64,000 nt of DNA from Candidatus Cloacimonadales bacterium (GTDB lineage Bacteria > Cloacimonadota > Cloacimonadia > Cloacimonadales > JAFGVF01). The stretch covers positions 1,784,234 through 1,848,233 of the forward strand of contig OY759729.1 in the NCBI GenBank assembly GCA_963662585.1, written 5' to 3'. The notes beneath the pieces were generated by a model, which ran no database searches, was not told the origin of the DNA, and worked only from the letters and a program-made list of their open reading frames with translations. Numbering within the stretch: position 1 is the first letter of the stretch; each line of letters starts with the position of its first letter. Of the stretch, positions 21,576-59,097 are shown in pieces. A program made the position numbers and the translations under genes.

Positions 21576-22021
21576 GAACTTAAGATTTACCACTAAGTCA
21601 CAAAAGTCACTAAGAAGAAAGAATTTTTTAGCCACGAATGAACACAAATTAACACGAATAATTTAAGACAAGGTGAATAAGAATTTTTACCACAAAGGCA
21701 CAAAAGACACAAATAAAATGAAAAGAAGAATGTTGAATTGTTTAGGTGTTTAAAATTTTCAAAAAAAATAGTTATTGAAATCACCCCCTGTGTCCCCCTT
21801 GAGGCGTCGCACAAGGCTATGGAAGGGGATTTAAGAGATTTATTATGGAAGCAGGGACGCTTCCATTCCATAGGAATCACCCCTTGTGTCCCCCTCATGG
21901 AAGGGGATTTTAAGAGTTTAGGAATTAAGTTCTAGCCACAAATTAACACAAATAAGAAAAAACAATAAGAGTTTTATCAGTCTATTACTTTAAATTAAAG
22001 GATGATATTACAGGTAAAAAT
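21576..22021. repeat. Repeat-filled intergenic block: four left-type CCAC… arms plus an H1-H2-H1 hairpin triad (21779-21910)
   Basis: Arms TTACCACTAAGTCACAAAAGTCAC, TTAGCCACGAATGAACACAAATTAACACGAATAA, TTACCACAAAGGCACAAAAGACACAAATA and CTAGCCACAAATTAACACAAATAAG. Hairpins TGGAAGC-AGGGAC-GCTTCCA and ATCCCC…GGGGAT. Confidence 0.6.
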
Positions 22022-22444
22022 ATGCCAAACACAACAATAGACAAAATCAGAAAAGCCTTTAATGCAACTAAGAAGCCTGAAAAGATTAATGAATCTTTAG
22101 CAAAAGCTAAATCTATATTCGAGGAAAGTCTAAAAGAGCAATTTGTCAGGTGTGAAAAGATAGATTTCAATGATGTGGTTTTGTATGAGTATAAATCTTT
22201 TTCTAGTTCAGGATGTTATCTCTGTAATGAAAGTACTTTTGTTTTGTTGAATGTTAAAGCTCATCCTAATTTTGTGAATTACTGGAAGATTAAAACCGAT
22301 GGCCTGGCAGAAAAGATTGAGAATGCGATTGTGTTTTTTGAGAAAGGGAGTCATGGTGTGTCTGAAGTAGTGTTATCGAAGTATGAGATTGAGAAAAGAA
22401 GGGGCTTGCTGAAGCAAGAATTAAAAGATAAAAATGAAAAGTGA
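22022..22444 (+). CDS. Hypothetical protein (140 aa)
   Basis: ORF only, with no recognisable motif. Embedded between repeat blocks. Confidence 0.4.
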   Translation: MPNTTIDKIRKAFNATKKPEKINESLAKAKSIFEESLKEQFVRCEKIDFNDVVLYEYKSFSSSGCYLCNESTFVLLNVKAHPNFVNYWKIKTDGLAEKIENAIVFFEKGSHGVSEVVLSKYEIEKRRGLLKQELKDKNEK

Positions 22445-22687
22445 AAAGTTGTGGTATTGCCTTGCAATGATGATCTGAAGAAGAAAGAAGTTTTAGCCAC
22501 TAATGAACACAAATTAACACGAATAATTTAAGACAGGGTGTAATAGTGACGGGGAGACATAGAGACAAGGCGATTAAGAGATTTAATTATTTAAGAGTTT
22601 ATAAATTTAAAAATAAGAATAGAACACAGTATACTCAGAGTGGACAGATTAATAAGATAGAGTGACGGGGATTTTAAGAATTTTTAT

Positions 22688-22806
22688 GGAATCACCCCTG
22701 TATCCCCCTCATGGAAGGGGATTTTAAGAGTTTTATTATGGAAGCAGGGACGCTTCCATTCCATAGGAATCACCCACTGTGTCCCCCTCGTGGAAGGGGA
22801 TTTTAA
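22688..22806. repeat. H1-H2-H1 hairpin triad (second copy)
   Basis: ATCACCCCTGTATCCCCCTCATGGAAGGGGAT / TGGAAGCAGGGACGCTTCCATTCCATAGG / ATCACCCACTGTGTCCCCCTCGTGGAAGGGGAT. Nearly the same as 21779-21910. Confidence 0.7.
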
Positions 22807-22912
22807 AACTTTTTTCAACTTTTTTTTCAAAAGTGGACCATTTTCAGAAAAAGTGGGCCCTATAAGTATATGAAGGGTTAATAACCTTAATACTTAAAAA
22901 GGAGAAACCATT

Positions 22913-23281
22913 ATGAGTTTCCAAAAAAAAGAAAATTTAGTAGCAGTTAATGAAGAGTGTCCAGTGTTAGCAAAGGAAAGACAGAAGAAAAAAGAAGTGT
23001 GTGAATATTTAGCATTAGTCTCCAATTTATTATTACTTGTAGATGATTTCACAGAAGAATATCTAGCTGATATGAAACAATTAAGGTTTGAAGTAGAACA
23101 TTATTTATACAAAGGTATTAAAAATTTAGATCCTGATTTTCCTTGGGATGATCCTTTTTGCAAAGTAGGATCTGGAGAAACAAATAACGAAGATGTTCCT
23201 GAAGGGATGTATGAAATACTTAAAGAATATCTTGAAGAAGAAGAAATAATAGCTAATAAGCAATTAGCTTCTCCCTGTTAA
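22913..23281 (+). CDS. Hypothetical acidic protein (122 aa)
   Basis: ORF preceded by RBS AAAGGAG and followed by a strong terminator. No recognisable motif. Confidence 0.45.
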   Translation: MSFQKKENLVAVNEECPVLAKERQKKKEVCEYLALVSNLLLLVDDFTEEYLADMKQLRFEVEHYLYKGIKNLDPDFPWDDPFCKVGSGETNNEDVPEGMYEILKEYLEEEEIIANKQLASPC

Positions 23282-23345
23282 TACAATAGATTCTTAGTCT
23301 CAATGTCGTGGTTTATAAAATTTAATTAGTTTGGCCTCCTTTACA

Positions 23346-23382
23346 CTGCCGAATAAGTATTTCTTGTTCGGCAGTTTTTTTT
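23346..23382 (+). terminator. Rho-independent terminator
   Basis: CTGCCGAA-(13 nt loop)-TTCGGCAG followed by T8. Confidence 0.7.
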
Positions 23383-23420
23383 AATCTGAAAAGAACAAGA
23401 TCTTTCACACGAATTAACAC

Positions 23421-23888
23421 AAATTAAAGACGAATTTCACAAATTAAGAGAAAGAAAAGAAAAATCCTTAACACAGAGTTGTACAGAGGTTAAGAGGAGT
23501 TTCACAGAGTTTTGTAGGGTGCAAGTCATTATTCGCCATCTTAAATGAAGTTTTAACCACAAATGAACATTAATAATTAAGACAAAGTGATGGAGTGTCG
23601 GAGAGACAAGGAGAATAAGAGTTTTCACCACTTAGACACAAAGGCACTAAGAAGAGAAAGAATATAAAAGTGAAAAATGAAAAGTTAAAGAAGTTTTAGC
23701 CACGAATGAATACAAATTAAAGACGAATTTCACAAATTAAGAGAAAGAAAAGAAAAATCCTTAACACAGAGTTGTACAGAGGTTAAGAGGAGTTTCACAG
23801 AGTTTTGTAGGGTGCAAGTCATTATTCGCCCTCTTAAATGAAGTTTTAACCACAAATAAACACGAATAATTAAGACAAAGACTAAGTG
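23421..23888. repeat. Direct duplication of a ~175-bp segment (copies at ~23421 and ~23714, offset 293 bp)
   Basis: The first ~145 nt differ at 1 position. Each copy contains a left-type arm TCCTTAACACAGAGTTGTACAGAGGTTAAGAGGAGTTTCACAGAGTTT and a CCACAAAT… arm. Confidence 0.7.
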
Positions 23889-24021
23889 AAGGAGTGACGG
23901 AGAGAATTTTTATTACTAATTTGTTTTCATCATTAGTGGAATGTATTTTTTGTGTCTTAGTGTCTTTGTGGTGATAAATATTCTTGGACTCCCCTCTTAT
24001 GGAAAGGGGATTTATATGAAA

Positions 24022-24064
24022 AGACTGATTAATAGGTAAAAGCCTAATAATCAGTCTTTTTTTT
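24022..24064 (+). terminator. Candidate Rho-independent terminator
   Basis: AGACTGATTAATAGG-TAAAAG-CCTAATAATCAGTCT (one mismatch) followed by T8. It is not obvious which transcript it ends. Confidence 0.5.
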
Positions 24065-24136
24065 ATTGACAAGTTTATTGACTATAGAATAGTTAAGAAG
24101 AGAGGATTTAAGATAGAAGCGGAATATGATAATGAA

Positions 24137-24277
24137 GCACCCCCTGTGTCCCTCTTGAGGTGTCGCACAAGGCTATGCCCTCACAGGCTATGAGGGGAAT
24201 TTTAAGAGATTTATGGAAGCAGAGACGCTTTCATTCCATAGGAAACACCCCCTGTGTCCCCCTCGTAGAGGGGGATA
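24137..24277. repeat. H1-H2-H1 hairpin triad (third copy)
   Basis: CACCCCCTGTGTCCCTCTTGAGG…, TGGAAGCAGAGACGCTTTCATTCCATAGG, ACACCCCCTGTGTCCCCCTCGTAGAGGGGGAT. Lies directly upstream of the sugar transferase gene. Confidence 0.7.
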
Positions 24278-24302
24278 AATAAATTTGAGAGAAGGTAGTG
24301 TG

Positions 24303-28915: not shown

Positions 28916-29446
28916 AAAATTATGGACATAACCCTGTAAGGATTTAATCAAATTTATATAATAAGGTCCTTGCACCTTAAATTTTCCAGTTCTCCGCTAG
29001 AGCGTCGAACCACTAATGGTGGGTTGCTTTGTGCTACCAAGAAACAGCTCCTCTGGAGCTAAAACCAATGAATTAACTCAGAATGATGCTAGCAAGAAAC
29101 CGCTCCGCTGACAGGAACCAAAATTATCTCTTTATGATACCAAGATTGAACCAAGCATATCTCTTCGCTTCGGAGAAGCGGTTTCTTGGTAGTCATGAGT
29201 ACCTATCACGAACACCTTCGCTCCGTAGGTGCGAATTTATTTTAATTAAATAGCATATTATATAATATTTATTAACAAATAATATAAATATATTTTGTTT
29301 GTATACTTTTTTACTAGCAAGGAAAAATAATATCCCTGAAAGGGATTAATAGATTAGCCTGGGGTAAGATCCTATAGGGATCGTCACCCCAGGTGCAATA
29401 TCTAAAATTATGGACATAACCCTGTAAGGGTTTAATCAAATTTATA
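28916..29446. repeat. Segment bracketed by 43-bp direct repeats, containing a hairpin-rich GC-richer core and an AT-rich stretch
   Basis: AAAATTATGGACATAACCCTGTAAGG(A/G)TTTAATCAAATTTATA at 28916-28958 and 29404-29446 (42/43). Inside, ACCAAGAAAC(A/C)GCT occurs three times, one of them inverted. Confidence 0.55.
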
Positions 29447-29463
29447 GAAGGATTAATGAGAAA

Positions 29464-32458
29464 TTTTATAAGGTATTTCGCACGCAAGGGTGCATGCAAT
29501 CCGGCAGAAGAGGTCTTATCATGCTGTAAACTATCATCTTTAGTGATTAACTGGGGTTACGGACCTTTAGTCCGTGAATACATCAGGCTGTATTTCAGTC
29601 TGTTTTATTTAATCCCTTTGGGATTGAATGACACAGGGGGTGTTTTCTTCTATGGAGTGGAAGCGTCTCTGCTTCCACATTAGACAAAAATAAGATAACA
29701 TTAGAATTTTATAAGGTTTTTCGCATGCAAGGGTGCATGCAATCCGGCAGAAGAGGTCTTATCACATTTGTTACCTTTTTAGGATATGTCGCCCTGCTAG
29801 GGCTATATGCTGGTTGTTTCCTCTAGGAGTGTCTTGCGAACACTCCCTGTTATATGTTATCCCTCCGGGATGTAAAAGGCTCGACAAGAATACAGCACAT
29901 TAAACCAGGATTAAAGAGGTCAACATTATTCACCATTCTACCAGCTCCCTCTGCAGCTAAGAAGATTTTGAAGGATTAATGAGAAATTTTATAAGGTATT
30001 TCGCACGCAAGGGTGCATGCAATCTGGCAGAAGAGGTCTTATCATGCTGTAAACTATCATCTTTAGTGATTAACTGGGGTTACGGACCTTTAGTCCGTGA
30101 ATACATCAGGCTGTATTTCAGTCTGTTTTATTTAATCCCTTTGGGATTGAATGACACAGGGGGTGTTTACTTCTATGGAGTGGAAGCGTCTCTGCTTCCA
30201 CATTAGTCAAAAATAAAATAACATTAGAATTTTATAAGGTTTTTCGCATGCAAGGGTGCATGCAATCCGGCAGAAGAGGTCTTATCAAATTTGTTACCTT
30301 TTTAGGATATGTCGCCCTGCTAGGGCTATATGCTGGTTGTTTCTTCTAGGAGTGTCTTGCGAACACTCCCTGTTATATGTTATCCCTCCGGGATGTAAGA
30401 GGTCCCGTATCAAGTATTTATTACAGCACATTAAACCAGGATTAAAGAGGTCAACATTATTCACCAATCTACCAGCTGCCTCTGCAGCTAATAAGATTTT
30501 GAAGGATTAATGAAATATTTTTATAAGGTATTTCGCACGCAAGGGTGCATGCAATCCGGCAGAAGAGGTCTTATCACATTTGTTACCTTTTTAGGATATG
30601 TCGCCCTGCTAGGGCTAAATGCTGGATGTTTCTTCTAGGAGTGTCTTGCGAACACTCCCTGTTATATGTTATCCCTCCGGGATGTAAGAGGTCCCGTATC
30701 AAGTATTTATTACAGCACATTAAACCAGGATTAAAGAGGTCAACATTATTCACCAATCTACCAGCTGCCTCTGCAGCTAAGAAGATTTTGAAGGATTAAT
30801 GAGAAATTTTATAAGGTATTTCGCACGCAAGGGTGCATGCAATCCGGCAGAAGAGTTCTTATCATGCTGTAAACTATCATCTTTAGTGATTAACTGGGGT
30901 TACGGACCTTTAGTCCGTGAATACATCAGGCTGTATTTCAGTCTGTTTTATTTAATCCCTTTGGGATTGAATGACACAGGGGGTGTTTTCTTCTATGGAG
31001 TGGAAGCGTCTCTGCTTCCACATTAGACAAAAATAAGATAACATTAGAATTTTATAAGGTTTTTCGCATGCAAGGGTGCATGCAATCCGGCAGAAGAGTT
31101 CTTATCATATTTGTTACCTTTTTAGGATATGTCGCCCTGCTAGGGCTATATGCTGGTTGTTTCTTCTAGGAGTGTCTTGCGAACACTCCCTGGTATATGT
31201 TATCCCTCCGGGATGTAAGAGGTCCCGTATCAAGTATTTATTACAGCACATTAAACCAGGATTAAAGAGGTCAACATTATTCACCATTCTACCAGCTCCC
31301 TCTGCAGCTAAGAAGATTTTGAAGGATTAATGAGAAATTTTATAAGGTATTTCGCACGTAAGGGTGCATGCAATCTGGCAGAAGAGGTCTTATCATGCTG
31401 TAAACTATCATCTTTAGTGATTAACTGGGGTTACGGACCTTTAGTCCGTGAATACATCAGGCTGTATTTCAGTCTGTTTTATTTAATCCCTTTGGGATTG
31501 AATGACACAGGGGGTGTTTACTTCTATGGAGTGGAAGCGTCTCTGCTTCCACATTAGTCAAAAATAAAATAACATTAGAATTTTATAAGGTTTTTCGCAT
31601 GCAAGGGTGCATGCAATCCGGCAGAAGAGGTCTTATCAAATTTGTTACCTTTTTAGGATATGTCGCCCTGCTAGGGCTATATGCTGGTTGTTTCTTCTAG
31701 GAGTGTCTTGCGAACACTCCCTGTTATATGTTATCCCTCCGGGATGTAAGAGGTCCCGTATCAAGTATTTATTACAGCACATTAAACCAGGATTAAAGAG
31801 GTCAACATTATTCACCATTCTACCAGCTCCCTCTGCAGCTAAGAAGATTTTGAAGGATTAATGAGATATTTTATAAGGTATTTCGCACGCAAGGGTGCAT
31901 GCAATCCGGCAGAAGAGGTCTTATGATGCTGTAAACTATCATCTTTAGTGATTAACTGGGGTTACGGACCTTTAGTCCGTGAATACATCAGGCTGTATTT
32001 CAGTCTGTTTTATTTAATCCCTTTGGGATTGAATGACACAGGGTGTGTTTTCTTCTATGGAGTGGAAGCGTCTCTGCTTCCACATTAGACAAAAATAAGA
32101 TAACATTAGAATTTTATAAGGTTTTTCGCATGCAAGGGTGCATGCAATCCGGCAGAAGAGGTCTTATCACATTTGTTACCTTTTTAGGATATGTCGCCCT
32201 GCCAGGGCTATATTCTGGTTGTTTCTTCTAGGAGTGTCTTGTGAACACTCCCTGTTATATGTTATCCCTCCGGGATGTAAGAGGTCCCGTATCAAGTATT
32301 TATTACAGCACATTAAACCAGGATTAAAGAGGTCAACATTATTCACCATTCTACCAGCTCCCTCTGCAGCTAAGAAGATTTTGAAGGATTAATGAAATAT
32401 TTTTATAAGGTATTTCGCACGCAAGGGTGCATGCAATCTGGCAGAAGAGGTCTTATCA
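29464..32458. repeat. Composite tandem array: 12 copies of a 58-bp hairpin repeat (J) alternating with two body types (A 185 bp, B 222-231 bp)
   Basis: J starts at 29464, 29707, 29987, 30230, 30519, 30807, 31050, 31338, 31581, 31869, 32112 and 32401. Periods are 243 (A) and 280-289 (B). Order: A B A' B B A B A' B A B. Confidence 0.9.
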
Positions 32459-32550
32459 TTTACTTAAGTTAATACTAAAACTCTGTGTTAAGGAACTTCT
32501 CTTATTCTTTCTTATTAGTGAAATTAGTGGATAGATTCTTCTTGCTTAAA

Positions 32551-39487: not shown

Positions 39488-39895
39488 TTGGAGACAGTTT
39501 GTGTTAGATTAACCCCAGGTTCAAAGCTGAGGGAATCAATTTATCAGATAGCTAAAGAAGGAAATATAAAGGCTGGGATAGTTTTAACTTGTGTAGGAAG
39601 TTTGCAAGAGCTTAATATCCGCTTAGCTGGAGCAAATCATAAAATCTCCAATCATGACAAGTATGAAATAGTATCTTTAGTCGGAACATTTAACCAACTA
39701 GATCAGGGACATTTTCATATCTCTGTTGCAGATAGGAAAGGAAATTGTTATGGAGGACATCTTTTGGAAGATAATATAGTAGCTACAACAATAGAATTAG
39801 TGTTAGGTATTTTACCTGGAAAACAATTTTTGAGAAAAACAGACCCTGAAACAGGATATTTAGAGTTAGTAATAGAAGATGATATACTTAGATAA
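39488..39895 (+). CDS. PPC/DUF296-domain protein
   Basis: 135 aa. VRLTPGSKLRESI…GSLQELNIRLAG…GHFHISV resembles the DUF296 fold family. TTG start. Confidence 0.55.
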   Translation: METVCVRLTPGSKLRESIYQIAKEGNIKAGIVLTCVGSLQELNIRLAGANHKISNHDKYEIVSLVGTFNQLDQGHFHISVADRKGNCYGGHLLEDNIVATTIELVLGILPGKQFLRKTDPETGYLELVIEDDILR

Positions 39896-41033
39896 TGCGG
39901 CTACATCATTTCCTAAAGCACCTGGCCTTGCAGAAGGAATTGCTTGGCATCTTAACAATATTGCTGGAAATACTGGTCGCTCTTCCTATAGAGCTTCTGT
40001 TCATAATTCTATAATGATTTATGAAGCTAGGGAGAAGTTAGCTGACTTGCTTCATTGCTCAGATAGCTCTAGAATAATTTTTACAAATAATGCTACCCAC
40101 TCTTTAAATATGGTAATTTTAGGAAGTATAAAAGAAGGGGAGAGGATTTTAGTTTCTCCTTTAGAACACAATTCAGTAATGCGTCCTTTATCCTACCTCA
40201 AGCAGAATAAAAATATTGAAATATTAACTTATAAATTAACTGATAATTTAGAAATAGATTGGACTGATTTCCACTTTCAGCTCAAGAATAACAAAATTGA
40301 CAGAGTGGTAACTACTATTTCTTCTAATGTTACCGGGACTATTTTTCCTTTAGAGAAAATTAGTGAACTTTGTACTCAGTATAATATCCCCCTTCTAGTA
40401 GATGCTGCTCAATTTATTGGCTATGAAGAACTAGACTTAAGTAAAATGAATGTTAGTGCTCTTTGTTTTCCTGGTCATAAAGGCTTATTAGGACCAAGTG
40501 GTACTGGAGCTTTATGGTTTAAGGAAGATTATGATTTTCAAGCCCTTACTTTTGGTGGGACTGGCTCTAAATCAGATTCAATTCTCCAACCAGATTTCCT
40601 TCCTGATAAATATGAAAGTGGGACTTTGAATATTAGTGGTATTTATGGATTGTCTCTTGCTTTAGATTATCTAAAAAAGAAAGGGATAAGCAATATAAGA
40701 AAAGAAAGAAAAGAAATCACCCACTATATACTTCAAAGAATGAATGAAATTGATGAAGCTATTATCTACAGTAATTCTGATTTAGATAGACAGATAGGGG
40801 TAATTTCCTTTAACCTGAAAAATATACCTTCTTCTGATGTAACTCTACACTTAGATAGAAAAGATATTGCGGTCAGAATGGGATTGCATTGTTCTCCCCA
40901 AGCCCATAAATTCCTGGGCACTTTAGAGTTAGGTGGAACTGTGAGGATTAGTCCAAGTTCCTTCACAACATCAGATGAGATTGATAAAACTATTGAAACA
41001 TTAAAAGAGATTATTTATGGATTTAAAATTTAA
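39879..41033 (+). CDS. Class V aminotransferase: cysteine desulfurase / selenocysteine lyase-like
   Basis: 384 aa. PLP-lysine context FPGHKGLLGPSGTGALW and active-site RMGLHCSP. Directly upstream of selD. Confidence 0.75.
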   Translation: MIYLDNAATSFPKAPGLAEGIAWHLNNIAGNTGRSSYRASVHNSIMIYEAREKLADLLHCSDSSRIIFTNNATHSLNMVILGSIKEGERILVSPLEHNSVMRPLSYLKQNKNIEILTYKLTDNLEIDWTDFHFQLKNNKIDRVVTTISSNVTGTIFPLEKISELCTQYNIPLLVDAAQFIGYEELDLSKMNVSALCFPGHKGLLGPSGTGALWFKEDYDFQALTFGGTGSKSDSILQPDFLPDKYESGTLNISGIYGLSLALDYLKKKGISNIRKERKEITHYILQRMNEIDEAIIYSNSDLDRQIGVISFNLKNIPSSDVTLHLDRKDIAVRMGLHCSPQAHKFLGTLELGGTVRISPSSFTTSDEIDKTIETLKEIIYGFKI

Positions 41034-42066
41034 AGTTAAAAAGCTTACTGATTACAGTAAGTACTCCGGCTGAGGAGCTAAATTGAGTCCAGAGGTTCTG
41101 GATAGAGCTTTGTCAGGTATGGTGCAAGCCCATTACCCTAACTTACTGCTTGATTATTCTCATGCTGAAGATGCAGGTGTTTATCTCATAAATGAGGACT
41201 TAGCCATTGTGCAAACTTTGGACTTCTTCCCACCAATTGTAGATGACCCTTATCATTTTGGACAGATTGCTGCCTGTAATGCTCTTTCTGATATCTACGC
41301 CATGGGAGGAATACCTAAAACTGCTATGAGTATTGTCTGTTTCCCTGATGATACTCTCGATATTGGTATTCTTAGAGAAATAATGCAAGGAGCCTTGAGT
41401 ATCTTAACAGAGGCGGAAACAGCTCTTGTAGGTGGGCATAGTATTAGTGATAGTGATATTAAATTTGGACTTTCAGTAACGGGTTTTGTTAATCCTAAAA
41501 AAATAATTAAGAATAATACACCGCGAGATAAGGATGTAATTATTGTTACTAAACCTATCGGAACAGGGATTATTAATACTGTGTTAAAAGCAGATATGGC
41601 TTCACCTAAATTGATAGACTTGTCAATAAAATACATGACTCAACTCAACAAGAAGGCAGCTGAAATTGCTTTAAAATATGATATATCATGCGGGACAGAT
41701 ATTACAGGATTTGGTCTCTTAGGCCATCTAGTGGAAATGATTCAAGACTCTTCACTTGGTGCTTTAATTCAATATGAGAAGATTAATGTTTTGCCTGAAG
41801 TTTTAGATTTTGCTGAAATGGGACTAGTTCCTGCTGGAGCTTATAATAACAAAAATTATAGAAGCTGTTTTATAAATAATTTTGCTAATCACCCTGCGGA
41901 AAAAATGGATATTCTTTTTGATCCTCAAACTTCAGGAGGGCTTATGTTAGGAGTAAATCCTGAACAAGCAGAATTAATGCTCAAAGAATTACTTGAAGCT
42001 GGGATTGATGCCTATATTTGTGGTAAGTTTAGCTCTAGTATTTCTAAGATAGAGGTTGAGTTTTAA
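41017..42066 (+). CDS. selD: Selenophosphate synthetase (selenide, water dikinase), selenocysteine-containing
   Basis: ATG 41017 is in frame with track ORF 41083-42066 through one TGA at 41071-41073. The translation MDLKFKVKKLTDYSKYSG-U-GAKLSPEVLDRAL aligns with the E. coli SelD N-terminus [23 protein letters not shown], with U at the catalytic Cys17 position. Confidence 0.8.
41088..41102 (+). promoter_or_regulatory. Candidate SECIS hairpin apex
   Basis: TCCAGA-GGT-TCTGGA perfect 6-bp stem starting 14 nt after the UGA, with a G/U-containing loop. Bacterial SECIS elements lie immediately downstream of the UGA. Confidence 0.4.
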
Positions 42067-42305
42067 TGCAGTTCGTGATTACCTTTCCTTCTTCTCATAA
42101 TGCTATGCAGGCTAATAAGATATTCTCTTCTAGTGATATAAAATGTGAAATAATTCCTACTCCTAGGCAAATAAGTTCAGAGTGCGGTTTCGCTATCTTA
42201 GGTGAGATTGAAGATATAATAGATTTGACAGAATTTAGCTCGATAAATAAACTAAAAATTGATAAAATATATATAAAGAGAGGGGAGATTTATGAAGAGT
42301 GTTGA
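42066..42305 (+). CDS. DUF3343-like small protein
   Basis: 79 aa. Starts at the selD stop. This family is commonly next to selD/yedF; assignment is recall-based. Confidence 0.5.
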   Translation: MQFVITFPSSHNAMQANKIFSSSDIKCEIIPTPRQISSECGFAILGEIEDIIDLTEFSSINKLKIDKIYIKRGEIYEEC

Positions 42306-42909
42306 TGGCAGAAAACTAGCTTGTCCAAAGCCTGTTTTGTTAACCAAAGAAGCAATTAGTGATGAATCAACTAATCAAGTTGAAGTGATTGTAGATAACT
42401 CTGCAGCCTTAGAGAATGTTAAAAGATTTCTTGTGAAATTTGGTTTTGAGGTTAAGGATGTTCAGCAGAAGGCTAATGACTATCATATTTTTGCTGATAG
42501 ACTGGAAATTATTGACTCTGACTCCGAATTCGATGTTAATGAATATCCTTGTCCTGTGCCAAATACCGCAAATAAAGGGAAAACAATATTTATTAAGAGT
42601 GAATTCCTAGGTATCGGAGATGATAAACTAGGTGCTTTACTTATGAAAGCATTCATCTATACTTTGAATGAAGTTGATAACCAACCAGTGAGGCTTCTCT
42701 TTATGAATTCAGGAGTAAAACTCTGTATTGAGAATGCAATTACTCTTGATAATTTGCAAAAATTAGAAGAGAAAGGTGTGGATATTTTAGTTTGTGGTAC
42801 TTGCTTAGATTTCTTTGGATTATCAGACAAATTAAAAGTTGGCAAAGTATCAAATATGTACGATATAGCTGGAAGTCTTACTAGCGACAAGGATGTGGTA
42901 ACTATTTAA
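42292..42909 (+). CDS. YedF-type selenium-metabolism protein (TusA/SirA-like N-domain + DsrE-like C-domain)
   Basis: 205 aa with an N-terminal LACPKPVL (CPxP) motif. C-terminal half ends with VCGTCLDFFG. Confidence 0.65.
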   Translation: MKSVDGRKLACPKPVLLTKEAISDESTNQVEVIVDNSAALENVKRFLVKFGFEVKDVQQKANDYHIFADRLEIIDSDSEFDVNEYPCPVPNTANKGKTIFIKSEFLGIGDDKLGALLMKAFIYTLNEVDNQPVRLLFMNSGVKLCIENAITLDNLQKLEEKGVDILVCGTCLDFFGLSDKLKVGKVSNMYDIAGSLTSDKDVVTI

Positions 42910-54320: not shown

Positions 54321-55973
54321 CTAATCTTTCCGACACCTAAGTTATTGCAAATAAACTACTAATTTGCACATCATAGCGACTCATATGTCTTTTTATCAGT
54401 TAATTATGCAATTCTGCCATTATACCGAATATCTACCTCTGTGATTTTATCTATAATTTCTTCATTTTCAAAGAATTTTCTTATCATGATATCAACATCC
54501 TTTCTTAACTCAGTTAAATTTGTGTATCCATAAGCTATTGAATAATCGATGAAGTCTTTTACTTTTTGAGTAAAAATCGTATTAATAAATATGATTAATG
54601 ATGCATCTTCAAGCTCTTCATAAAATTCAATTAATAACTGTTCCATAGAAGGATATGGTTTTTGCTGTTTTTTGTAACATAGTATGTTATAAAAAACATA
54701 CCTAATAGTCAAATCAGCTATCATAGCAGAGTATTTTGAAGAATGGCTCTGATTATATCCAAAATATTGTTTAATCTCTTTAAATACACATTCTATTGAC
54801 CATCTTCTCATATAAATTTTTAAAACTTCTATTTCTGAAAGTTGTAAATCAGTTGCTAAAATAGCCTTCCATCTTTTAACATTAGGGTACTTAAAAAAGC
54901 ATATTTTAATCTTTTCTATTACTTTTCTTTCATTTATTTTTCTTGAACTTGAAGTATCTAATAATTCAACAATAACAGATTTATATTTTATTCCGGATTT
55001 CCTATCATAAAACCATTTACCAGCTATTTTGTTTAGGGTTTTCAAATCATAATATTGACCTTTAAACTTATATTTCTGGGAACCATTTTTTAACATAGAC
55101 ACTAGTGTTATTCCAAGTGGTACAAGTCTTTTAAATACAAAGTTATAACTTGTGTTGTTATTGAACCAAGAATCCCATAATACATATTTAAAAGGTATTT
55201 TTCTCTGAATAGTGCGTTTTATCATTTTAATTACAATTTGAGTCTTCTTTTCTTTTGAGAAACGATTTCTTTGCTCAGTATGAGTGCCTTTGTGGTATCT
55301 GGGTCTTTTTGACTTTTTGACTTTTTTCTTTCCAATTTTTAATTCAAAATCTAATACAATAGCTGATAACCCATTACTCCACACTTCAGTTATGTTTTGA
55401 AACCCTTTGAAGTATTTTGATAAACAGTGATCATGAAACCAACTGATATATTCTGTCTTTTTCCCTGTTTTTACTTTCGATGTATCATCAAAAATTATAC
55501 AATTATCATTTTCACAGGAAGTATCACTTAGCTTAATAAACCTTAAAGCAACTTTATATAATAGATTTCTCCATTTATAATTAGAGTTGTTTAGCATATC
55601 ATTAATGGGTGTTTTAAATTTTGATATATTATTGAATTTTAGACCAAAATATAAGGATTTTTTATTCTCAAGAATCATGAACATAAAAAGAAGCATCAAT
55701 TCAATGATGGTATGACCTTTTTGTTTTACTATACCAACTTGCTTCAAAATACTTCCAAATTTAAATATTTCAAATAACTCTATTATTAATCCTGAATTCA
55801 AGCTTGACACTTTTACCTGTTTGTATTTTTTTAGCATATATACCTCGTTTTTTATAGTTTCGTTTATTTCCGTAAACAACTAAACTATAATCATATACGA
55901 GGTATTTTTGTCAATATCTATTTTTATCTATTTTATTGTTACACAACAACTTAATTCATGTCGGAAAGATTAG
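54321..55973 (-). mobile_element. IS4-family insertion sequence (1653 bp)
   Basis: 15-bp perfect terminal inverted repeats CTAATCTTTCCGACA. 6-bp direct duplication TTATTA (54315-54320 / 55974-55979). An uninterrupted paralogous site occurs at ~56451-56470. Confidence 0.8.
54404..55879 (-). CDS. IS4-family DDE transposase
   Basis: 491 aa. D (IIFDDTS), D (VLWDSWF) and an exact Y-x2-R-x3-E-x6-K signature (YMRRWSIECVFKEIK). Confidence 0.8.
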   Translation of the reverse strand: MFTEINETIKNEVYMLKKYKQVKVSSLNSGLIIELFEIFKFGSILKQVGIVKQKGHTIIELMLLFMFMILENKKSLYFGLKFNNISKFKTPINDMLNNSNYKWRNLLYKVALRFIKLSDTSCENDNCIIFDDTSKVKTGKKTEYISWFHDHCLSKYFKGFQNITEVWSNGLSAIVLDFELKIGKKKVKKSKRPRYHKGTHTEQRNRFSKEKKTQIVIKMIKRTIQRKIPFKYVLWDSWFNNNTSYNFVFKRLVPLGITLVSMLKNGSQKYKFKGQYYDLKTLNKIAGKWFYDRKSGIKYKSVIVELLDTSSSRKINERKVIEKIKICFFKYPNVKRWKAILATDLQLSEIEVLKIYMRRWSIECVFKEIKQYFGYNQSHSSKYSAMIADLTIRYVFYNILCYKKQQKPYPSMEQLLIEFYEELEDASLIIFINTIFTQKVKDFIDYSIAYGYTNLTELRKDVDIMIRKFFENEEIIDKITEVDIRYNGRIA

Positions 55974-57110
55974 TTATTATTGTCTTATGTGGAAGCAGAG
56001 ACGCTTCCACTCCATAGAAGAAAACACCCCCTGTGTCCCCCTCACGGAGGGGGATTTAAGATTCACGGACTAAAGGTCCGTAACCGTAACCCCAGTTCTT
56101 CAATCCCAAAGGGATTAAATAGATTAGCCCAGGGTCTCATTTTTTGAAGAAAAATTGACCCTGGGTATGGTACACCAATATTTGTGTAACCCTGTCTTGT
56201 GAAGGCGAAGCATTAGCGTAGACTCAAAGGGTTTAATAGAGAAAATAATAATTACTAAAAAATCGGTCAAATTATTTAGGACTGAACATTCACACGAATT
56301 AACGCGAATGTAGGGGCCTATTGCCATACGCCTTCTTGAAAAGTTCCCTAACACAAAGTTTTTAAGAAAAGTTTTGAGAATGTGATAAGATCTCTTCTGC
56401 CGGATTGCATGCACCCTTGCATGCGAAAAACCTTATAAAAATCTAATGTTATCTTATTATTGTCTTATGTGGAAGCAGAGACGCTTCCACTCCATAGAAG
56501 AAAACACCCCCTGTGTCCCCCTCACGGAGGGGGATTTAAGATTCACGGACTAAAGGTCCGTAACCCCAGTTAATCACTAAAGATGATAGTTTACAGCATG
56601 ATAATCCCTCTTCTGCCGGATTGCATGCACCCTTGCATGCGAAAAACCTTATAAAAATCTAATGTTATCTTATTATTGTCTTATGTGGAAGCAGAGAGGC
56701 TTCCACTCCATAGAAGAAAACACCCCCTGTGTCCCCCTCACGGAGGGGGATTTGAGATTCACGGACTAAAGGTCCGTAACCCCAGTTCTTCAATCCCAAA
56801 GGGATTAAATAGATTAGCCCTGGGTCTCATTTTTTGAAGAAAAATTGACCCTGGGTATGGTACACCAATATTCGTGTAACCCTGTAAGGTTTTATCACAC
56901 TCTTGAAATTCTCTCCATTTCCCTTGCTCTGTGACTGTCATCTCAAATATTATTTGAATTTTATTCGTAATATCATTAATGGAGCATTAAGAGACTAAGA
57001 GAAAAGGAAAGAAAAAGCAGAATTGTAGAAAAGGATAAAAGCTATAATATCAACAATTTACGAATCTAAAATCTAAAGTAAAAGATAATAATATAAAAAA
57101 GATATTGACA

Positions 57111-57130
57111 GTTTGACGAATTTGTCAAAC
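57111..57130 (+). promoter_or_regulatory. Palindromic candidate ArsR operator overlapping the ars promoter region
   Basis: GTTTGAC-GAATTT-GTCAAAC perfect 7-bp inverted repeat, 25 nt upstream of the arsR ATG, flanked by TTGACA/TTGACG -35-like hexamers. Confidence 0.45.
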
Positions 57131-57154
57131 TTGAAATTATCAGGAGATAAAACT

Positions 57155-57478
57155 ATGGAATATTCAAAAGAAAAATATGAAATGCTAGCAGATATATTAA
57201 AAGCTACAGCACACCCTGTCAGACTTTATATATTAGAGACTTTGTTAGATCGTAAGCTCTGCGTAAAGGAATTTGCCGATGAATTAGGTTTTGATATTTC
57301 AACCATATCAAAACATTTAACTATGATGAAGAAGAGTGGTTTAATTTATGATTATCGAGAAGGTAATTGTGTTTATTACATGATTAGATGTGATTGTGTT
57401 AGCAGATTTTTAAAGGCTTCTAAGGATATTTTATATTCAAATATGGAGCGAGAAAAACAGCTTTTTAAAGGAAATTAG
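57155..57478 (+). CDS. arsR: ArsR/SmtB-family transcriptional repressor
   Basis: RBS AGGAG lies 8 nt before ATG 57155. Winged HTH: HPVRLYILETL…CVKEFADELGFDISTISKHL. Confidence 0.75.
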   Translation: MEYSKEKYEMLADILKATAHPVRLYILETLLDRKLCVKEFADELGFDISTISKHLTMMKKSGLIYDYREGNCVYYMIRCDCVSRFLKASKDILYSNMEREKQLFKGN

Positions 57479-57481
57479 ATT

Positions 57482-58438
57482 ATGTTTCATTTTTTAGAAG
57501 TTTTTGGAGAATTCATAACGAGATCAGTTGGCTTGGATTTAGATTCACATTGGGGTGAAGCTTTAACTTTCTTTATCTATGATACTTTAAAGATTATTAT
57601 TATGCTAAGTATAATGATTTTCTTAATATCATATTTAAGATCTTACATTAATCCGACTAAATTAAAGAAGGTAATATCTAAGGTTAGTGGGCTTGGTGGT
57701 CATATTTTAGCATCAATATTTGGTATAGTGACTCCATTCTGTTCTTGTTCATCAGTGCCAATGTTCATAGCTTTTGTCGAGGCTGGTATTCCTGTAGGAG
57801 TAACACTCTCATTTTTGATAACTTCACCAATAGTTAATGAAGCAGCATTTGCTATTTTATTAGCATCCTTTGGCTGGAAAATTGCTGTTATATATGTTAT
57901 CTGTGGTCTTGTAGTGGGAATTGTTGGTGGAATAGTAATTGGATTATTTAAACCAAGAAAATGGGTTGAACCCTATGTTTTTGAAATGAAGTTTGGTAAC
58001 TCAGCAGAAGAGCAATTCTCAAGTCAAAATGATAGATTGAAGTGGTCAATTGATCAGGTGAAAGATATTGTCGGAAGAGTTTGGTACTTCGTTTTAATAG
58101 GAATAGGAATTGGAGCCGTTATTCATGGTTGGGTGCCTGACGGAGCTTTAGCAAATATTGCTGGTTCAGATAATCCTTTTAGCGTAATAGTAGCTGTAAT
58201 TGTAGGTATTCCTTTGTATTCTAATGCTTTAGGGACAATACCAATTGCTGAAGCATTAATTAATAAAGGTGTGGGAATCGGTACTGCCTTAGCATTCATG
58301 ATGTCTGTTACTGCCTTATCTCTTCCTGAGTGTATAATCCTTAAGAAGGTAATAAAACCGAAATTAATAGCTATATTTATAGCAACTACAGGGATTGGAA
58401 TTATCCTGGTGGGATATGTTTTTAATCTGTTATTTTAA
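57482..58438 (+). CDS. ArsP-type (DUF318/PF03773) permease
   Basis: 318 aa, multi-TM, with a conserved TPFCSCSSVP cysteine motif. ars operon context. Confidence 0.65.
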   Translation: MFHFLEVFGEFITRSVGLDLDSHWGEALTFFIYDTLKIIIMLSIMIFLISYLRSYINPTKLKKVISKVSGLGGHILASIFGIVTPFCSCSSVPMFIAFVEAGIPVGVTLSFLITSPIVNEAAFAILLASFGWKIAVIYVICGLVVGIVGGIVIGLFKPRKWVEPYVFEMKFGNSAEEQFSSQNDRLKWSIDQVKDIVGRVWYFVLIGIGIGAVIHGWVPDGALANIAGSDNPFSVIVAVIVGIPLYSNALGTIPIAEALINKGVGIGTALAFMMSVTALSLPECIILKKVIKPKLIAIFIATTGIGIILVGYVFNLLF

Positions 58439-58465
58439 ACAAAATCAATAAAAAGGAGAAGAGAG

Positions 58466-58699
58466 ATGATTATTAAAGTATTAGGTACAGGTTGTAGCAA
58501 GTGTAAAAAACTCGAGCAAGAAACTATTAAAGCTGTGAAAGAAACAGGAATCGAAGCAACTATTGAAAAAGTAACAGAACTAAAAGATATTATGGAATAT
58601 GGGGTAATGATGACACCTGCCTTAGTAATTGATGAAAAAGTAGTCTCTTCGGGTAGGCTAATATATTCCAAAGAAATCATAAAATTAATAAAAGGTTAA
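58466..58699 (+). CDS. Thioredoxin-fold redox-active disulfide protein (77 aa)
   Basis: CxxC motif GTGCSKCKK. Size and context match small thioredoxin-like proteins that accompany ArsP-type permeases. Confidence 0.65.
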   Translation: MIIKVLGTGCSKCKKLEQETIKAVKETGIEATIEKVTELKDIMEYGVMMTPALVIDEKVVSSGRLIYSKEIIKLIKG

Positions 58700-58701
58700 T
58701 T

Positions 58702-59097
58702 ATGAAAAGAGTCTTATTTCTTTGTACAGGTAATTCCTGCCGTAGTCAAATCGCAGAGGGATTAATGAATCAGTATGAAGGATATGAAGCTTTTTCAGCT
58801 GGGACAAAACCGACAGAAAGAGTGAATCCTAATGCTATAGAAGTTATGAAAGAGTTAGGTATAGATATTTCAAAACATAGACCAAAATTAGTAGATGAAT
58901 TTTTGCAAGCTGAATTTGATTTTGTAATTACTGTTTGTGATTCAGCCAAAGAGACTTGTCCTATTTTTACAGGAAAAGTAAAGAATCATCTTCATATTGG
59001 CTTTGAAGATCCTGATGGCCACTCTTTAGAAAAGTTTAGAGAAGTTAGGGATTTGATTTCTGATGCAGTAAGAGAGTTAATTAAATTGACTAAATAA
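58702..59097 (+). CDS. arsC: Arsenate reductase, LMW-PTPase family (thioredoxin-coupled)
   Basis: 131 aa. P-loop LCTGNSCRSQ and downstream cysteines (VCDSAKETCP). Confidence 0.8.
   Translation: MKRVLFLCTGNSCRSQIAEGLMNQYEGYEAFSAGTKPTERVNPNAIEVMKELGIDISKHRPKLVDEFLQAEFDFVITVCDSAKETCPIFTGKVKNHLHIGFEDPDGHSLEKFREVRDLISDAVRELIKLTK

Follow-up and report, generated by a model that had tools for sequence, protein, structure and literature searches.

The window analyzed here, a 64,000-nt stretch of the genome of Candidatus Cloacimonadales bacterium (contig OY759729.1, positions 1,784,234 to 1,848,233), contains a selD gene (ATG 41017 to TAA 42066) whose product is very probably a selenophosphate synthetase of 349 residues, with selenocysteine (Sec) at the residue equivalent to Cys17 of Escherichia coli SelD. 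The full-length coding sequence (41017-42066, forward strand, as are all the selD features and neighboring genes described below) was delimited by its reading frame and by profile and structure matches. It starts at ATG 41017-41019, with 18 sense codons before an in-frame TGA at 41071-41073, and is open beyond the TGA up to TAA 42064-42066, which puts Sec at residue 19. The 18 N-terminal codons (41017-41070) encode MDLKFKVKKLTDYSKYSG and the translation continues after the UGA as GAKLSPEVLDRAL.... These codons were dropped by the open reading frame (ORF) caller, and the mechanical ORF list gives selD only from the TTG at 41083-41085 onward, as a protein of 327 aa. The original prediction had described a single TGA interrupting an otherwise open frame from ATG 41017, along with the TTG and a hairpin downstream; the sequence agrees with this description and all the positions given in it are exact.

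The read-through product was identified as SelD by profile and structure comparison. It scored 360.6 bits against TIGR00476, the SelD equivalog (cutoff 125), and covered the profile completely, from 1 to 311 of 311. The score against NF002098 was 315.7 bits (cutoff 299). Among solved structures the best match was E. coli SelD 3u0o (E = 4e-69), with residues 9-337 in the alignment. This alignment places query residue 19, the UGA, on Cys17 and Lys22 on Lys20 of the E. coli protein, the window peptide being KLTDYSKYSG-U-GAKLSPEVL, and it bears out the earlier proposal that U occupies the Cys17 position. Cys17 and Lys20 are taken here to be the catalytic residues, as established for the E. coli enzyme. 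All the SelD homologs carry PF00586 and PF02769 (AIRS and AIRS_C). Provided that the UGA is read through, the window product also has the glycine-rich loop with Cys/Sec and Lys that marks SelD.

The interrupted frame was compared across 11 distinct clade loci from independent assemblies (window, L001, L145, L146, L140, L002, L082, L142, L144, L138 and L143), which show 69-99% aa identity. One related SelD, from the chromosome OY782499.1 of Candidatus Cloacimonadales bacterium, is 84% identical to that of the window. TGA is present at the identical codon in all 11 loci, and each of them possesses an ATG 17-19 codons upstream of it, with the frame between the two open. The peptide KLT(D/N)YSKYSG-U-GAKLSPE is kept throughout. 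Among the ten codons preceding the TGA, nine vary between the loci and eight of these nine vary only synonymously; the stretch before the apparent stop is therefore translated and under purifying selection at the protein level. It is the conservation of the TGA, of the upstream coding frame and of hairpin-compatible codons in the 10 other independent assemblies that exceeds chance.

The shared TGA also bears on the idea that selD is a pseudogene or an assembly error, its frame broken by a nonsense mutation of recent date or by faulty sequencing. Nothing except the presence of the stop codon speaks for this reading, while the same TGA recurs in all 11 distinct clade loci, which come from independent assemblies and samples and span 69-99% identity, and the remainder of selD is intact and constrained. 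It is effectively refuted and was given next to no probability. The same negligible weight was given to an alternative genetic code with UGA as a sense codon (table 4 or 25). The only hint towards such a code is one Logan gene call (P0015) that prints W at the site. On the other side, of the 44 window ORFs with 150 aa or more, 9 end in TGA, translation with table 11 leaves long ORFs intact, and a scan of the window for ORFs read through TGA revealed no other credible case, its other candidates being rejected as repeat-derived or out-of-frame artefacts. TGA is thus an ordinary stop in the window and the standard genetic code applies; for the window the alternative code is refuted.

A more specific objection is that the TGA is a true stop, that a truncated SelD lacking the glycine-rich loop starts at TTG 41083 or at ATG 41119 and that the 18 upstream codons are a leader ORF or untranslated. 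In accordance with it, TTG 41083 is preceded, at a distance of 5 nt, by a Shine-Dalgarno-like GAGGAG (region 41074-41085), and the public gene calls of close relatives all begin downstream of the TGA. Against it, the GAGGAG is made by UGA-GGA-GCU, so that it is forced by the UGA-Gly-Ala codons and by the lower helix of the stem-loop described below, which is formed by the same bases. Of the 11 clade loci, 7 have CTA, CTT or TTA, none of them a start, in place of TTG 41083, and four have Leu or Ile in place of Met35 (ATG 41119); as both positions vary, no downstream start is conserved. A genuine start at 41083 in homologues had been named beforehand as one of two observations that would overturn the Sec reading. 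Moreover, the upstream codons are under protein-level purifying selection and encode the loop found in the Cys-type homologs and in E. coli SelD, and a truncated product would lack both Cys17/Sec and Lys20, catalytic in the E. coli enzyme. Termination at the TGA was accordingly considered highly improbable. The TTG is a false start and an internal Leu codon, and the 327-aa ORF beginning with it is a gene-caller artefact, probably chosen by gene callers because of the Shine-Dalgarno-like GAGGAG upstream.

The same artefact was found in the public records. A search for public protein homologs was made and the best 120 matches were listed. Among the matches listed, the close homologs P0001-P0014 (81-99% identity) and those at about 70% identity are truncated, with lengths of 286, 315, 322 or 327 aa that represent at least three different false starts. 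The window TTG-start ORF is identical to one public gene call, and P0016, a GenBank entry named SelD, is N-terminally truncated too. Over all the public proteins retrieved for the clade (P0001-P0019), the catalytic loop is missing from each or, in a single case, W stands at the site. In the case of P0015 (344 aa), the Logan call with W at the site, the locus itself has TGA and translation with table 11 does not give that protein. Function predictions or alignments that use the truncated SelD records of this clade are off by 22-63 residues.

A stem-loop is positioned directly after the UGA (41074-41111) and is the putative bacterial selenocysteine insertion sequence (SECIS) of the gene. It was delimited from RNAalifold, codon choice and the architecture of a more distant locus, L147. 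The lower helix pairs 41074-41078 with 41107-41111 and starts directly after the UGA, while the 6-bp upper helix pairs 41087-41092 with 41098-41103. The apical loop (41093-41097, AGGUU) has 5 nt and starts with AG, and 19 nt separate it from the UGA. In the window, an additional A-U pair shrinks the loop to a GGU triloop. The hairpin TCCAGA-GGT-TCTGGA noted earlier corresponds to 41088-41102, with a 14-nt spacer from the TGA, and a G-U pair lengthens it to 41087-41103; in the minimum-energy fold this upper hairpin is stacked on the second, lower helix. The earlier statement that a hairpin lies 14 nt downstream, where a bacterial SECIS is expected, thus holds, and the clade has kept the structure. 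When RNAalifold was applied to ten non-identical sequences of the clade, the two helices were retained in all ten, with 11 pairs and 109 of the 110 cells paired. The substitutions in the stem are all one-sided and keep the pairing (A-U to G-U, G-C to G-U and G-U to G-C), and the codon changes behind them are CCA to CCG, CTG to TTG and GAT to GAC.

Since the stem region also encodes the peptide SPEVLD, a codon-choice test was made. The upper stem demands AGT for Ser, CCA or CCG for Pro and CTG or TTG for Leu, a combination with a joint chance of about 1.5% under the codon usage of the window. CTG is the rarest Leu codon in the window (4.6%) and stands at this place in 9 of the 11 loci. Leu and Ser codons adjacent to the stem, outside it, drift freely among synonyms. 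The free energy of the relatives' hairpins was stronger under synonymous resampling, with z from -1.3 to -2.8. When the structure following the codon was compared with synonymous resamples over all the SelD loci fetched, the TGA-type genes had a median z of -1.4 (n=86) and the Cys-type genes one of +0.15 (n=22), a difference with Mann-Whitney p = 3e-7. The locus L147, which is 57% identical and also has TGA, forms the same lower helix and a different upper stem, GGGACC/GGUCCU, at the same place.

The 19 nt from UGA to loop and the G among the first two loop bases fall within the bSECISearch consensus model. As in the SECIS elements of the E. coli fdhF/fdnG type, the stem-loop is placed directly 3' of the UGA inside the ORF. 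The element is unlike that of fdhF in that its sequence is unrelated and a bulged U is not evident. In its 19-nt UGA-loop distance, its upper helix of 6-7 bp and its G in the first two loop nucleotides it resembles the bacterial SECIS consensus of bSECISearch (Zhang & Gladyshev 2005). The stem-loop 41074-41111 is a putative bacterial SECIS, and its mode of action is inferred from what is established for Sec insertion in bacteria. It would function as SECIS while the mRNA is translated, its apical part being bound by the complex of SelB, GTP and Sec-tRNASec. With the UGA in the A site of the ribosome, Sec would then be delivered to it in place of release factor 2. As SelD makes selenophosphate from selenide and ATP, the enzyme would thereby feed its own synthesis.

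Several observations weigh against Sec insertion at this UGA, some of them concerning the stem-loop and others the decoding machinery. Within the clade, compensatory double changes are absent from all the base pairs of the stem-loop, and the amino-acid sequence SPEVLD by itself gives much of the stem complementarity. The free energy of the window hairpin did not differ from that of dinucleotide shuffles (z = 0.07), which are uninformative for a short coding hairpin, and synonymous-codon resampling and the codon-choice test were adopted for this reason. Even against synonymous-codon resamples, the window hairpin reached only z = -0.68, and 26% of the resamples were equally stable. Rfam searches, with gathering thresholds on the 64-kb window and with E <= 10 on 40950-41250, returned no SECIS match and two chance-level matches, Rfam being without an applicable family or covariance model for this stem-loop. 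As for the machinery, ARAGORN, Rfam, Pfam/NCBIfam and tblastn detected neither selA nor selB nor any tRNA in the 64-kb window, and selA, selB and tRNA-Sec were likewise not found within about 10 kb of selD (flanks of about 20 kb) in five related genomes. The Sec reading therefore has to assume that selA, selB and tRNA-Sec are located elsewhere in this genome.

The domain and family annotation behind these searches covered most window ORFs of at least 100 aa, together with Pfam on the syntenic genes of L001. The tblastn queries were E. coli SelA and SelB in approximate sequence, compared with the window and every locus. No tRNA-Sec was detected near any clade selD when ARAGORN was run on the window and the relatives' loci, and Rfam on 8 related loci gave no tRNA-Sec. 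SelA or SelB was seen beside selD only in unrelated Clostridia, Chloroflexi and other loci, and never in the window or the Cloacimonadales loci. A 'Cloacimonetes type tRNASec', whose acceptor/T stem is of the 7+5 kind, is described in a passage of PMC5330540 that cites Mukai et al. 2016, which supports Sec decoding at the level of the phylum.

The missing machinery is an argument for another possibility, that the UGA is read through without any Sec machinery, by near-cognate Cys or Trp insertion or by a non-Sec suppressor tRNA, with the hairpin as a mere stimulator of read-through. No Sec machinery was located in the window or in the selD flanks of the relatives, and in insects, SPS1-UGA genes have been proposed to undergo Sec-independent read-through that a hairpin stimulates (PMC4561486). 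On the other hand, the site is the catalytic Cys/Sec position, and prokaryotic SelD has only Sec or Cys there (PMC4561486). The stem-loop has the position of a bacterial SECIS and a loop containing G, a Cloacimonetes tRNASec has been published, and it is hard to explain why a leaky stop should be kept over TGC or TGT across a whole order. This possibility was judged very unlikely, only slightly less so than termination at the TGA, and Sec insertion is the preferred reading.

To place the clade among other SelD genes, SelD loci from GTDB genomes and metagenomes belonging to many phyla were collected and 111 of them were scored. The codon at the UGA site is TGA in 89 loci and a Cys codon (TGC or TGT) in the other 22. 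The motif of the clade is G-U-G-A-K, whereas most of the TGA-type genes fetched have G-U-A-(A/S/C)-K. The more distant homologs (50-57% identity) are full-length proteins that read SGCGAKLGP, with Cys at the site, and P0020-P0025, several of the nearest Cys-type homologs, carry G-C-G-A-K. On a rough neighbor-joining (NJ) tree, which is crude and whose sampling is biased towards near matches, the window clade is positioned inside a Sec-rich group. Of its 44 leaves, 12 are confirmed TGA forms, 30 are truncated calls and 2 have Cys. On the same rough tree this group joins a large set of Cys-type proteins before it joins the other Sec forms with the common G-U-A-x-K motif.

Such a topology could reflect an independent conversion of Cys to Sec in Cloacimonadales SelD, with a newly evolved SECIS shaping the SPEVLD peptide, a scenario which we regard as unlikely. 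No Cys-to-Sec events were reported in the SelD family by Zhang et al. 2006. As a weaker variant, the GAGGAG and the TTG inside the window SECIS might work as a selenium-dependent switch between the full-length and the truncated product.

The window gene has all the sequence features of the Sec-containing SelD class. In common with Sec-SelD/SPS2 of Haemophilus influenzae, Aquifex aeolicus (Sec13), Clostridia and Deltaproteobacteria, it belongs to the same family with the AIRS and AIRS_C domains in the same order, has UGA at the same catalytic position and a SECIS candidate in the coding sequence just downstream, and is surrounded by selenium-related neighbors. It differs from the common Sec-SelD in its G-U-G-A-K motif and in that the nearest proteins outside its Sec-rich group on the rough NJ tree are of Cys type. 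It shares with the Cys-type E. coli SelD (3u0o) the loop LTxYSxxxG-(C/U)-GxK and the same Lys, while E. coli SelD has TGC (Cys) and needs no recoding. In the Cys-type genes of the set, the sequence after the codon is not structured in excess. Sec is encoded by 19% of the prokaryotic SelD genes in a reference set, "always in the same position", and the bacterial SECIS of Sec-SelD lies inside the coding sequence (PMC4561486). Among bacterial selenoproteins, SelD and FdhA have the widest distribution (PMC1794560). In agreement with these two reports, the case is an annotation correction and not new biology, as the original prediction had assessed. Sec-containing SelD is well known, and the window gene is a further, mis-annotated case which leaves the understanding of selenium biology unchanged. 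Its practical value lies in annotation. A Sec-containing SelD would also mark the genome as Sec-decoding, so that other selenoprotein genes interrupted by UGA, such as those for glycine or proline reductases and formate dehydrogenase, are plausible targets in these digester bacteria, which ferment amino acids.

Five closely spaced genes with overlapping ends lie here on the same strand, selD being the third. The first (39488-39895) encodes a protein with a PCC domain (PF03479), assigned from Pfam on the syntenic genes of relatives, with no NCBIfam match. The second (39879-41033) encodes a cysteine desulfurase or selenocysteine-lyase-like (SclA-like) protein, with 407.8 bits against TIGR01977 (cutoff 377) and 278 bits against the SclA model, which is under the cutoff of that model; its last 17 nt overlap the start of selD. 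The fourth (42066-42305), whose ATG overlaps the selD stop, is a DUF3343/Se_S_carrier gene identified by PF11823 on the syntenic gene. The fifth (42292-42909) encodes YedF, with TusA and DsrE domains, a sulfurtransferase-like protein of selenium metabolism (TIGR03527, 209.1 bits, cutoff 110). This five-gene order is kept in the clade loci with readable flanks, and the five genes probably form an operon for the mobilization and delivery of selenium.

Cysteine desulfurase/Sec lyase, DUF3343 and YedF are known as selenium-metabolism neighbors of selD according to a passage of PMC9312934 that refers to Lin et al. 2015, and a role of DUF3343 in selenium trafficking has been proposed (PMC9312934). 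Like these known neighborhoods, the window has an SclA-like desulfurase, DUF3343 and YedF flanking selD in overlapping frames. Unlike them, its cluster is headed by a PCC-domain (PF03479) gene and there is no adjoining yedE in the window. At L146 1494-2951 the genes for the PCC-domain protein and the cysteine desulfurase are called as one fusion of 485 aa, a hint that within the selenium cluster these two proteins act jointly. In two other relatives (L138 11684-13298 and L144 2806-4426), the genes after YedF are an unannotated one, of about 298 aa, and one for an ABC permease (BPD_transp_1), which may represent a selenium-related transporter. In the window a hybrid histidine kinase is situated at that place instead.

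The window as a whole has a G+C content of 32%. Its first 28 kb are occupied by a polysaccharide-synthesis cluster, and the remainder contains histidine kinases, a zinc ABC transporter, an ars operon and folate/aminobenzoate genes. The ars-type cluster (57113-59097) consists of ArsR, an ArsP_1 permease and an ArsC of the low-molecular-weight phosphatase type, with a gap of 264 nt at 58438-58702.

Two kinds of repeats were also observed in the window. An ORF-poor tandem array of 3.1 kb (29368-32459) is composed of about six units of ~531 bp, each with two copies of a 59-nt motif (TTTTATAAGGTATTTCGCACGCAAGGGTGCATGCAATCCGGCAGAAGAGGTCTTATCAT), which amounts to 12 copies at 93-100% identity. The spacing of the motif alternates between 243 and 288 nt, and the only ORFs in the array are repeated ones of 75-84 aa. 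No Rfam match was obtained for 29368-32459, and a CRISPR-like nature of the array was rejected because the stretches between the motifs are repeated too. Dispersed intergenic repeats of about 95-200 nt are found at 21626-24287 (for example 21825-21919, 22718-22812 and 24193-24287) and at 55903-56885 (for example 56383-56576 and 56599-56792). The spurious translations of these dispersed repeats share '...YGVEASLLPH' with the tandem array, and the second group adjoins a DDE_5 transposase gene at 54404-55879.

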